Assembly (NCBI GenBank): GCA_034520945.1
Contig: JAXHNB010000001.1
Location: 256,001-320,000 of the forward strand
Length of the DNA: 64,000 bases
DNA from: Trueperaceae bacterium
GTDB taxonomy: Bacteria > Deinococcota > Deinococci > Deinococcales > Trueperaceae
Direction: 5' to 3'
The position numbers were made by a program, and so were the translations under genes. Positions 25,186 to 27,927 of the stretch are shown here, piece after piece. Position 1 is the first letter of the stretch. Each line of letters opens with the position of its first letter. A model generated the notes under the pieces. The model was not told the origin of the DNA. It saw nothing but the letters and a program-made list of their open reading frames with translations, and ran no database searches.

Positions 25186-25778
25186 GATCCCTCCGGGGGG
25201 TCGTGGCGCGCGTACAGCCCGTGCGTGTGCAGGTAGGCCGCCACGGCGTCGGGCACGAGGTAGCGAAGGCTCCGGCCGGCCGCGACGCGGCTGCGGACCA
25301 GCGTGCCCGACACGCCGAACGGCACGGTCTCGATCTTGGTCGCCGCCCGCGCGAACCGTTCGGGCGGGGGCGGCGCCTCCGTGCCGCGCCGGGGAAACAC
25401 CACCATCTGGACGGCTCGGATGAGCGCCTCGGCGCGGTGCCACGTCTCGATCTCGGCCCAGGCGTCGGCCCCGATCAGGTAGGCGAAGGTCGCTTCGGGG
25501 TGGCGTTCCTGCAGGTCCACCACCGTGTCGTACGCGTAGGACGGGCCGCTGCGCCGGATCTCGTCGGCGCGGGCGCGGAACGCCGGGTGGTCCTGTACCG
25601 CCAGGCGGGTCATCTCGAGCCGGTCGAGCGGCGAGGCGTCGGCGGGCTTGTGCGGCGGGTCGCCGGCCGGCAGGAACCACACCTCGTCCAACGGCAGTGC
25701 CTCGCGCGCCTGCTCCGCCATCAGCAGGTGTCCCATGTGCGGCGGGTCGAAGCGCCCCCCGAACAGCCCGACGCGCAT
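25182..25778 (-). CDS. nadD: Nicotinate-nucleotide adenylyltransferase (copy 1)
   Basis: GLFGGRFDPPHMGH (HxGH), PPHK, LIGADA, terminal YLVPDAVAAYLHTHGLY. Confidence 0.93.
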   Translation of the reverse strand: MRVGLFGGRFDPPHMGHLLMAEQAREALPLDEVWFLPAGDPPHKPADASPLDRLEMTRLAVQDHPAFRARADEIRRSGPSYAYDTVVDLQERHPEATFAYLIGADAWAEIETWHRAEALIRAVQMVVFPRRGTEAPPPPERFARAATKIETVPFGVSGTLVRSRVAAGRSLRYLVPDAVAAYLHTHGLYARHDPPEGS

Positions 25779-27927
25779 CAGGCGTCTCCGCCGGGCACGT
25801 CGGGGACGGCCGGCCCGCCGTCTCGCGTCGGCGCGCCCTCGAGGTCGCGCACGCGAGCACGGATGGCGCGGAACTGCCACGACCAGGAGGGATCGATCAG
25901 GAACGGCCGCAGGTCGAAGCGGTGGTCCTCCGGGGCGTACGCCTCGGCGTGATAGGCAGGCGTCGACACGGTGGTCTTGTGGCGGTGCGTGGCGTAGGCG
26001 CGGAAGAAGCGCTCGACCTTGTCGGCCACGCGTGAGGGGGGTGTGTCGGTCCAGGTCACGGCCAGGCGCTCGAACGCCTCCAGTGGGCCGTAGCGCTCGA
26101 TCTTGCGGAGCCGGCCCAGCTCGCCGAGCTCGGCGTAGGTGAGGCCCATCTCGTCCTCGTCGCGCTGCGCCCCCTCGCCGTCCTCCGGGGTCAGCTCCGC
26201 GCTGGGGGCCGCGCCCAGAATGTCGTCCAGCGCCGTGTAGCCCAGCGTGTCGCGCGCCCATGCCAGGAAGCGCCGCAGATCCACCTTCGAGATGCCACCG
26301 ATCGGGTTCAGGTCCGCGGACGAGGTGTCGTACTTGGTGAGGTAGCCCGTCAGGGTCTCGTCCACGTTGGCGGTGCCGACCACCAAGCGCGGGCCCCGCA
26401 CGCCCCGCAGGCTGGGGACGCGCTGCGCCAGCAGGTAGGACGCCACCAGGCGGCTGCGGGCCTGCAGGTTCTGCAGCGCCAGGTCGTCCGCCCGGCTGCC
26501 CCCTTCGCTCCGGAAGCGGAGGGGGCGTCCGTGCCGGGAGGGGCGATGGTGCCCGACACGTCCGCCAGCGACGCGACGGCGTCGTCCAGCGTCACCTCCA
26601 GATGGTCCGCCCCGATCTGTTCGGCCAATGCGCGGGCCCGCGCGCGGCTGGCGTCGGTCGACACCTTCGTGGCCAGGTACGCGGTCGTGACCAGGCGTCC
26701 CGCCAGCGCGCGCGGATCGTCGGGGGGATCCTCCCCGGCCGCCAGGCCTAGGACCGCCCGCAGGTCATGGATCACACCGCGCCGGCCGGCGGCGACCTCG
26801 CGCGCCAGCAGGCGGCACATCGAGCCCAGGATCGTCGCCACCGCCGCCGAGTCGCTGCCCCCCGACAGCGCCAGGAAGAACCCGCCGGCCCCGCTGCGGC
26901 GCAGGTAGTCCCACAACCAGCAGGCGGGGCCAAGGGCGATCTCCTCCTCGACCCGGTGCGTGTGGAGCGCGCGGGGCGGGGTGGCGGCGCGGTGGCGGGC
27001 CGCGTCCACCAGGCGCAGGCCGGTCCGCACGCGCGGGTAGGGCTCGGCCATCGACGCTTGCCGCATGCGGGTGGCGCGCGCGCCGCGGAGCGAGCGCACC
27101 TGGTCCAGGTCCACCTCGGCAGTGATCACCTCGACGTCGCGCGGCGAGAACTGCGACCCTTGCGCCACCACGCCGCCGTTCACCACGATCATGGCGCCGC
27201 CGTCGAAGTACAGGCGCCCCCCGTCGCAGCCCTGCTGGTTGGCGTACAGGTACACGCCGCCGAACCCTTCGGTGGCGGCGCGAATGCGGTGCAGCCGGGT
27301 CTCGAGCTTGCGGAGCTCGTGGTGCGACCCGCTGCCGTTCGCGAAGATCTCGACCCCGTCCAGCCCCAGATCGACGTGGGGGGCGTGGGGCGCGTACAGC
27401 TCTTCGCAACTCTCAGAAGCGACCACCGTGTCGTCGGTGGACACCACCGCGTCGCCGATCGGGACGGTGTCCTGCCCGGTCCGCGCCCGGATGATGGGCG
27501 GCAGCGTGAACGGCTCGGTGCGGCGCGCGTGCCGCCAGGCGGCGAACCAGCGGCCCTCGCGGTAGTTGCCGTCGTCCGCCAGCTCGCGTTTGGGGCGGAC
27601 CAGCAGCACCCGGCGGTCCAACAGGAACACGCGGGCGTTGTAGCGCACCCCGCGGTGCATGAGCGGCATGCCCACGTCGCACAGGATGCCGTCGGTGAGA
27701 TCGTCCGCCAGGAGCTCGGCCAGAACCTCGAACGAGTGCCGCACGGTGTCGCGCTCCAGGAAGTGGTCCTCGCAGCCGTAGCCGGGGATCTCGAGTTCCG
27801 GCCCCAGCCGGAAGCGCGCCCCGCGCGCCTTGGCCTCCTCGATCGAGGCGCGGATGCGGGTCAGGTTGCCGCCGAAGTCAAGCGCCCACTGGTCCAGGTT
27901 GCAGGTCGCGACCGTCGCGACGTTCAC
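25778..27927 (-). CDS. nadE: Glutamine-dependent NAD+ synthetase, eukaryotic NADSYN1/Qns1-like; frameshift near 26520-26560 (copy 1)
   Basis: Nitrilase triad GPELE / RPK / ESCEE; synthetase P-loop LSGGSDS; after the shift [38 protein letters not shown]. Confidence 0.92.

Follow-up and report, generated by a model that had tools for sequence, protein, structure and literature searches.

A predicted NADSYN1/Qns1-type NAD+ synthetase in the NAD salvage gene cluster of a Trueperaceae bacterium

The 64,000-nucleotide stretch of DNA analyzed here (the window) comes from contig JAXHNB010000001.1, positions 256,001 to 320,000 of the forward strand, in the assembly of a Trueperaceae bacterium (GCA_034520945.1); all coordinates below are those of the window. 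Its minus strand carries nadE (25778..27927), which was assigned by Pfam, by its best match in PDB (6OFB) and by a phylogenetic tree to the glutamine-dependent NAD+ (nicotinamide adenine dinucleotide) synthetases of the type of human NADSYN1 and yeast Qns1. In the assembly, the reading frame of the gene is broken once, giving two open frames whose overlap lies near 26521-26545. Taking the evidence together, we are quite confident that nadE is the working and only NAD+ synthetase gene of this salt-loving bacterium, that its product is of NADSYN1/Qns1 type and belongs to a bacterial branch from which it was probably acquired, and that the frameshift is an error of the assembly.

The gene is the second of four on the same strand, in the order pncA-nadE-nadD-pncB. 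The first, pncA (27924..28532, minus strand), encodes a nicotinamidase of the isochorismatase family (202 amino acids; PF00857, E 6.2e-40). Its match to the NCBIfam nicotinamidase/pyrazinamidase model PRK11609 was weak and below the cut-off, and the assignment is that of Pfam only. A GGAGG Shine-Dalgarno motif lies a few bases 5' of the pncA ATG. The third gene, nadD (25182..25778, minus strand), encodes a nicotinate-nucleotide adenylyltransferase of 198 amino acids (NF000840, 169.7 bits, cut-off 150; TIGR00482, 164.4 bits, cut-off 112), and the fourth, pncB (23617..25185, minus strand), encodes a nicotinate phosphoribosyltransferase of 522 amino acids (NF006695, 527 bits, cut-off 469) with the domains NAPRTase_N and NAPRTase_C. 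Adjacent genes overlap at every junction, through GTGA at the pncA stop and nadE start, TGATG at the nadE stop and nadD start, and ATGA at the nadD stop and pncB start. A preliminary description of the window, made from the letters alone, had reported the coupling of nadE to pncA and nadD and its place inside a bacterial NAD salvage operon, and both were confirmed.

From this arrangement, the four genes are probably transcribed together as a Preiss-Handler NAD salvage operon, and by their predicted functions they would encode the whole Preiss-Handler route from nicotinamide to NAD+. Upstream of the operon, on the same strand, lie what we take from the translations to be mrp antiporter genes, and downstream lies an open reading frame for what is presumably a MOSC-domain protein. 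A scan of 22500-29200 for promoters and terminators gave no promoter-like site; the single terminator-like site lay within an mrp gene, a yield not above that of shuffled sequences.

The nadE product has an N-terminal nitrilase-like glutaminase domain followed by a C-terminal PP-loop synthetase domain. Pfam placed CN_hydrolase (PF00795) at residues 5-281 of the N-part (E 3.1e-33), while NAD_synthase (PF02540) was split across the two pieces of the gene (E 2.9e-4 and 2.2e-17). Both pieces were then compared by phmmer with the sequences of PDB structures. For the N-part, the top match was human NADSYN1 (6OFB; E 8.7e-161), residues 4-457 aligning with chain positions 6-458; it was the top match of the C-part as well (E 1.4e-73, chain 469-699). 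The second-best solved relative was the Cytophaga protein 3ILV (E 5.5e-40 for the N-part and 9.3e-12 for the C-part). The Mycobacterium tuberculosis NadE matched the N-part at E 2.1e-15 and gave no match to the C-part at E <= 0.001. All nine peptide strings quoted in the preliminary description were found in the minus-strand translation of 25778-27927, and the resemblance to human NADSYN1 is genuine and well outside what chance would give.

The NCBIfam models of the two bacterial two-domain types were scored against the window pieces and, beside them, against an intact homologue of 695 amino acids (P0002). NF002730/PRK02628 gave 107.1 bits for the window N-part and 136.3 bits for the homologue, against a cut-off of 473 that neither reached; NF010588/PRK13981 gave 96.1 bits for the N-part, 26 bits for the C-part and 135.8 bits for the homologue, likewise short of its cut-off of 479. 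The identity of the window protein to these bacterial types was 22-26%. Since 6OFB was far ahead of the other structures and both NCBIfam models were missed widely, we conclude that nadE encodes an enzyme of NADSYN1/Qns1 type and not one of the usual bacterial types, as had been proposed from the peptide strings.

Active-site residues were checked on the phmmer alignment to 6OFB, in which the chain index is the UniProt number plus 1. The nitrilase triad, in which we take Glu45 and Cys175 to be the partners of Lys114 (human numbering), is kept, with GPELE, RPK and ESCEEL in the window protein opposite GPELE, RPK and EICEEL in the human enzyme. The PP-loop motif of N-type ATP pyrophosphatases, SGGxDS, is present as SGGSDS, with LSGGSDSAA opposite human LSGGVDSAA. 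The residues of the tunnel constriction and of the YRE loop, Tyr51, Asn122, Tyr123, Glu125, Gly201 and His203, are also kept (GNYRE, GSGSHH and PGYGC are aligned). In the structural study of the human enzyme (PMC6946656), Lys114 is named as the catalytic lysine and the residues of the constriction and YRE loop are given these roles. The study takes the human enzyme as the eukaryotic type and that of M. tuberculosis as the prokaryotic one, and it names residues conserved in either, calling Tyr123/His203 conserved in eukaryotes and Phe130/Pro204 of the M. tuberculosis enzyme conserved in prokaryotes. The window protein carries the eukaryotic pair, Tyr123 and His203. Human Lys609 is replaced by Arg and Glu120 by Asp. 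The long C-terminal extension is present, and the alignment of the C-part to 6OFB chain 469-699 includes its conserved tail ending in WQF.

The conserved residues suggest that the window enzyme works like the human one. The N-terminal nitrilase-like domain would hydrolyze glutamine, the released ammonia would pass via an internal tunnel to the C-terminal PP-loop domain, and that domain would adenylate nicotinic acid adenine dinucleotide (NaAD) and amidate it to NAD+. An octamer, the preference between glutamine and ammonia, and a tunnel running within the subunit are likewise predicted for the window enzyme from its likeness to the human protein.

The break in the nadE reading frame lies at a G5 homopolymer (26521..26525; C5 on the coding strand), which the contigs of four sequencing runs indicate to be one base short in the assembly. 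We aligned Logan contigs (contigs, not raw reads) of four public runs from two studies, X1 to X4, to 19500-39400. An extra G behind 26520 was present at full depth in X1 (30.2 of 30.2), X2 (19.2 of 19.2) and X3 (11.8 of 11.8). In X4, one additional base was likewise seen here in every aligned contig, placed behind 26520 as a G at a depth of 3.3 of 8.44 or behind 26523 as a C at 5.14 of 8.44. When one base is added, nadE becomes a single frame of 716 amino acids, in which the only stop is the terminal one and which reads ...TIAPPGTDAPLRFRSEGGS... across the site.

If the frameshift were real, nadE would be a pseudogene or would be expressed by programmed frameshifting, and the cell would obtain its NAD+ otherwise. 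Such an explanation could point to the identical break in both assembly copies of nadE (the second copy is described below) and to the 18 genomes without a NadE match above about 35 bits among the 41 surveyed (the window's genome and 40 relatives). However, besides the extra base in the contigs of all four runs, the site of the break is a five-base homopolymer, the frames on either side of it are fully conserved relative to homologues and hold no further stops, nadE is the only such gene in the genome, and the duplicated units of the window differ elsewhere by single-base indels (32916, 37967) that may themselves be consensus errors. A real frameshift is thus very improbable, and both a pseudogene and a programmed frameshift were ruled out by the contigs of the four runs. 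Because those contigs all carry the extra base, the frameshift stems from the assembly, which gives the homopolymer the wrong length, and not from the organism, and the gene is intact. The frameshift mentioned in the preliminary description is therefore the assembly's own and is repaired by a single base.

The genome to which the window belongs (3.47 Mb, 97% complete) was searched with PF02540. The search returned only two identical copies of nadE and guaA; the guaA match (L003), considered as a candidate second nadE, is the GMP synthase. The nadE gene is the genome's only NAD+ synthetase gene. Quinolinate synthase NadA (PF02445) was not found in the 97%-complete genome; nadB, nadC, nadV and nadR were not searched for. 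Since no quinolinate synthase was found, the salvage operon is probably the cell's main source of NAD+. The operon being the only route to NAD that was seen, the organism may need external niacin.

The composition of nadE is like that of its surroundings. Its G+C content is 0.732, compared with 0.69-0.72 for the contigs, and the G+C content at third codon positions (GC3) is 0.946 for the nadE N-part, 0.931 for pncA and 0.944 for nadD, in agreement with the earlier claim of full amelioration. The gene sits amid bacterial genes on a contig of 417,592 bases. The high identity to human NADSYN1 is the only observation that would favor eukaryotic DNA misbinned or misjoined into the assembly, or a gene passed recently and directly to this bacterium by a eukaryote. 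Against such an origin stand the start and stop overlaps with bacterial pncA and nadD, the neighbor-like GC3 of 0.946, the presence of the same operon in two genomes of the same genus, and the position of the protein inside a bacterial group of the tree. In addition, the nearest proteins among the matches listed are bacterial or metagenomic (70-75% identity, versus 51% for animals). We give this origin practically no credence. Contamination, which the preliminary description had called unlikely, is excluded because nadE lies among bacterial genes and its gene order is repeated in the two genomes of the same genus.

To survey the spread of the subtype, we used a protein search and a pattern scan. 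Of 8000 candidates scored in the protein search, 3650 matched at E <= 0.001. The 119 matches listed besides the window's own were 58-75% identical to it, and most were about 700 amino acids long, with three partial proteins of ~517 amino acids; the sources named among these matches were Chloroflexota, Poribacteria, Anaerolineales and one Cellvibrionaceae metagenome-assembled genome. The pattern scan, which covered one genome per prokaryotic species, gave 220 matches, 210 of which encode a relative of the window protein. Taxon labels were taken from the best 80 of the 210, which comprised 56 Poribacteria, 21 Chloroflexota, 1 Trueperaceae and 2 unlabelled genomes. The NADSYN1 type was the sole strong match to PF02540 in three of three other genomes, one each from Anaerolineae, Trueperaceae and Poribacteria.

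In a sample of 101 Chloroflexota genomes, the only clear NADSYN1-like match was that of the seed genome (G041), and weak N-domain matches in long open frames were seen in two others (G075 and G126). The PRK02628 type scored above the cut-off in 10 genomes of the sample, among them G081, which enters the count only and whose sequence was not used, and about 30 genomes had PRK13981-like matches. The NADSYN1 subtype is thus not rare in bacteria, yet it is in the minority even in Chloroflexota. Poribacteria commonly carry the bacterial branch of the NADSYN1 family, as do several families of Chloroflexota. The window's nadE is an ordinary housekeeping gene of a known enzyme family. The preliminary description had allowed that the subtype might prove widespread in bacteria, which would count against its reading; with relatives in 210 species genomes this is so, and this bacterium does not stand apart.

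The relation of the bacterial to the eukaryotic enzymes was analyzed in a careful tree of 46 rows and 707 columns (LG+C20+F+G4 by posterior mean site frequencies, with 200 bootstrap trees; the bootstrap was not fully settled, with a correlation of 0.986). The rows were 17 bacterial, 23 eukaryotic and 6 outgroup sequences, the last being PRK02628 and PRK13981 types from Chloroflexota. The set was cut down from 81 rows: only 3 of 26 unnamed rows were kept, near-duplicates, one partial sequence and the very long branches of Myxobolus and Penaeus were removed, and slower animals were added. The three unnamed metagenome proteins were counted as bacterial only through the window clade, which they share with a genome of the same genus, and two MMETSP/EukProt transcripts were counted as eukaryotic by their source. 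In this tree, the 40 NADSYN1-like rows were split from the 6 PRK02628/PRK13981 rows at 100/100, so that the grouping with NADSYN1/Qns1 and apart from the other two-domain NadE types was borne out. Within the NADSYN1 family, the 17 bacterial rows formed one side of a branch with support 96/95.

Among Deinococcota, the gene has a narrow distribution. A sample of 301 genomes comprised, besides the window's own, 102 of Trueperaceae and 198 of four other families; the NADSYN1-type gene turned up in 5 of the former, from two genera, and in none of the latter. The survey of 41 genomes gave a full single-domain NadE in 14, the NADSYN1 type in 5 (the window's included), and a single-domain NadE of about 320-330 amino acids, with an insert that splits the PF02540 match, in 6 (G002, G003, G008, G020, G023 and G024; loci L108-L111); these classes overlap, as G002 and G024 carry two NadE forms. 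The loci L108-L111 had been considered as two-domain enzymes and as outgroups, and were not used because they turned out to be single-domain NadE with an insert.

The order pncA-nadE-nadD-pncB is kept in two loci of the same genus, L087 (G007) and L088 (G004), and a Trueperaceae locus of another genus (L009) has pncA..nadE-nadD. When 79 Poribacteria, Chloroflexota and unlabelled loci were searched with the window proteins (tblastn, E <= 1e-8), no pncA, nadD or pncB was found within 6 kb. The salvage operon around a NADSYN1-type nadE is therefore a feature of Trueperaceae.

In the careful tree, the window clade adjoins an Ardenticatenaceae row with support 95/94. As the window gene groups with bacteria, the nearest being Chloroflexota, its immediate source was bacterial and not eukaryotic. 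The second of the two origins offered in the preliminary description, a bacterial clade beside the eukaryotic enzymes, fits the tree well; the first, an old transfer from a eukaryote, is weighed below for the branch as a whole. Because only two genera of Trueperaceae carry the gene among the Deinococcota sampled, these bacteria probably got it from other bacteria and put it into their own salvage operon. From the distribution we may reasonably infer that the NADSYN1 type displaced the native single-domain NadE carried by most Deinococcota. The NAD synthetases of the two same-genus loci are 51-63% identical to that of the window, and those of the other genus (G309 and G396) are 64-65% identical. 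The low identity within the genus reflects either fast evolution in part of the genus or exchange of the gene more than once; a single acquisition for all Trueperaceae was not rejected by the approximately unbiased (AU) test (p 0.464).

Several observations weigh against our overall account of the window gene. Two of the four runs, X1 and X2, may be the window's own source sample, which makes X3 and X4, from the other study, the only independent ones. The absence of NadA was judged with one Pfam model in a genome that is 97% complete. NAD synthetase may not be indispensable in the family, to judge from the 18 of 41 genomes without a NadE match. The identity of 51-63% within the genus poorly fits a single recent acquisition. 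The window clade is also fast-evolving, with a stem of 0.6 changes per column, and its amino acid make-up deviates from that of the alignment, so its Chloroflexota neighborhood may be an artifact. Finally, the activity, expression and oligomeric state ascribed to bacterial members of the NADSYN1 type are predictions from sequence.

The origin of the bacterial branch as a whole is a separate matter. One possibility is that the entire branch arose from one old eukaryote-to-bacterium transfer and then spread between bacteria (Poribacteria, Chloroflexota, Trueperaceae and others). Since such a transfer concerns the origin of the branch, it is compatible with our explanation of the window gene. Trees rooted on the outgroup put the bacterial group among eukaryotic lineages; eukaryotes were non-monophyletic in the free maximum-likelihood tree, and none of the 200 bootstrap trees set them apart by a single branch. 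The mean identities point the same way. Chloroflexota or Poribacteria are 59-60% identical to animals or red algae, as close as or closer than animals and red algae are to each other (55%), and the identity between bacterial phyla (67-72%) roughly equals the 67% seen within animals, in keeping with a branch that arose after the eukaryotes radiated. The identity between the NADSYN1 family and the PRK02628/PRK13981 types is 20-26%. The patchy occurrence in bacteria, in about 1 of 101 Chloroflexota and 5 of 300 Deinococcota genomes sampled, is also as expected from an old transfer.

However, forcing eukaryotes to be monophyletic cost only 6.81 log-likelihood units, and the AU test did not reject it (p 0.237). 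The careful tree gave no resolved backbone for bacteria, animals, red algae, plant, fungi and alveolates, and no eukaryotic group was a supported sister of the bacteria. The root is unsafe because the outgroup stem is 6.6 changes per column, and long-branch eukaryotes lie at the base. Eukaryotes were thinly sampled, with 23 rows and none from Amoebozoa, excavates, stramenopiles or green algae. Furthermore, in De Ingeniis et al. 2012 (PMC3376133), the fused NAD synthetases are divided into branches I-III and eukaryotic branch II is derived from bacterial branch I. Weighing both sides, we see the old transfer as falling a little short of an even chance.

Alternatively, the bacterial branch may be the sister or surviving donor lineage of the eukaryotic enzyme, the ancestor of eukaryotes having obtained its NAD synthetase from such bacteria. 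The AU result leaves room for this origin, and the fast eukaryotes may be pulled toward the very long outgroup branch in rooted trees. The identities fit a bacterial branch that is short and central, with the bacteria nearer to each eukaryotic group than the other eukaryotic groups are. Yet eukaryotes come apart in the free tree and in each of the 200 bootstrap trees, and the few bacterial lineages with their shallow divergence between phyla are unlike an ancient, vertically kept gene. We regard a sister or donor relationship as a fair contender that we would not bet on. The fuller proposal, that the NAD synthetase of all eukaryotes has its surviving sister or donor lineage in the branch of Poribacteria, Chloroflexota and Trueperaceae, is put forward only tentatively. 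If true, it would mark which kind of bacterium supplied the enzyme to the eukaryote ancestor, and the "eukaryote-specific" tunnel residues and the ammonia path within the subunit would be a bacterial invention.

Some observations on the eukaryotic proteins were made in passing. After red-algal and unnamed sequences, the best matches of the Chondrus crispus NAD synthetase were bacterial (Chloroflexota and Poribacteria, 57-59% identity), and among the 120 Chondrus matches listed, the only plant or animal protein was one from Lupinus. The red-algal proteins concerned are P0129, P0305, P0336-P0338, P0365 and P0368. Quick trees placed the red algae and the plant beside the bacteria (support 81), a placement that the careful tree did not resolve. 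In three eukaryotic models the NAD synthetase is joined to other domains, namely P0372 from Galdieria (1088 amino acids), P0299 from Lupinus (1201 amino acids) and P0403 from Lamprigera (1446 amino acids). In P0372, a PF01467 domain (NadD/NMNAT family) precedes two NAD synthetase domains, echoing the adjacency of nadE and nadD. These multi-domain models may be gene-model fusions.

The whole NAD operon occurs twice in the window. A blastn self-comparison showed two tandem direct units of ~20.29 kb (18916-39200 and 39206-59488), each with the complete operon and mrp antiporter genes. The second copy of nadE (46068..48217, minus strand) is base-for-base identical to the first and lacks the same base, its G5 run lying at an offset of 20290 in the second unit. 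The units are 99.5% identical, with 99 mismatches and 6 gaps by blastn. The differences fall in two bunches within the mrp region, one at about 30.9-32.9 kb and the other at about 34.9-36.9 kb, and the NAD operon is identical in both. The single-base indels between the units (32916 and 37967, versus 53205 and 58255) may be further consensus errors, or else true differences between copies or strains. Further positions at which the X2 contigs depart from the window by one base include 25755, 31472 and 33227. Other apparent frameshifts in this assembly accordingly need a check against reads before they are interpreted.

The junction of the duplication cuts an open reading frame for a CAP-domain protein, which is whole at the end of the second unit. 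None of the contigs listed from the four runs bridges 39200/39206, and the aligned stretch lies wholly inside the repeat and so gives no depth for the flanks. One X1 contig appeared to lead back, but it extends from the left flank into the first unit. The two units may reflect a true duplication of the segment; alternatively, the assembler may have put two strain variants in tandem.

For this genome, the results mean that nadE is intact, is the sole NAD synthetase and completes a compact salvage operon, with no de novo route found. More generally, the "eukaryotic" type of NAD synthetase is not confined to eukaryotes: it has a well-populated bacterial branch with ~60% identity to animal and red-algal enzymes. 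We found no description of a bacterial NADSYN1-like branch in the limited collection of literature searched, where nadE was merely listed among salvage genes in one paper (PMC9803151). Bacterial enzymes of this type would be easy-to-express models of the human enzyme, and their existence bears on arguments for bacteria-selective NadE inhibitors. Sampled more fully, the bacterial branch would allow the origin of the eukaryotic enzyme to be tested.

Among the known systems, the Thermotoga-type NadE (PRK13981, about 550-600 amino acids) and the Cytophaga hutchinsonii enzyme 3ILV are likewise two-domain, glutamine-dependent NAD synthetases. They are shorter and have no long C-terminal tail, and the PRK13981 type is 24-26% identical to the window protein. 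The octameric NadE of the M. tuberculosis type (PRK02628; 3DLA, 3SEQ) has in common with the window enzyme the reaction, the nitrilase and PP-loop design and a tunnel for glutamine-derived ammonia. However, it is 22-23% identical, it has Phe130/Pro204 where the window and human proteins have Tyr and His, and its own tunnel runs between subunits according to PMC6946656.

The NADSYN1-like enzymes of Poribacteria and Chloroflexota (Ardenticatenaceae, Promineifilaceae, Caldilineaceae and Anaerolineae), which public records call "NAD(+) synthase" or "glutamine-dependent NAD(+) synthetase", are much closer, with 56-60% identity to the window protein. They have the same length and the same start (M-N-L/V-x-T-x-A-T-C-N-L), and they fall in the same supported group of the tree (96/95), in which the window clade evolves faster than the other bacterial members. 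With human NADSYN1 (6OFB; Chuenchor et al. 2020, PMC6946656) and yeast Qns1, the window enzyme shares the two-domain design, its 716 amino acids comparing with a human chain of 707 residues. It can be aligned with the human protein from end to end (chain 6-458 and 469-699), and the triad, the PP-loop, the C-terminal tail and the first tunnel constriction (Tyr51, Tyr123, Glu125, Gly201 and His203) are the same in both. Over the 707 kept columns, its identity to slow-evolving animal sequences is ~51%. Unlike the genes of human NADSYN1 and yeast Qns1, the window gene is part of a bacterial operon with pncA, nadD and pncB.

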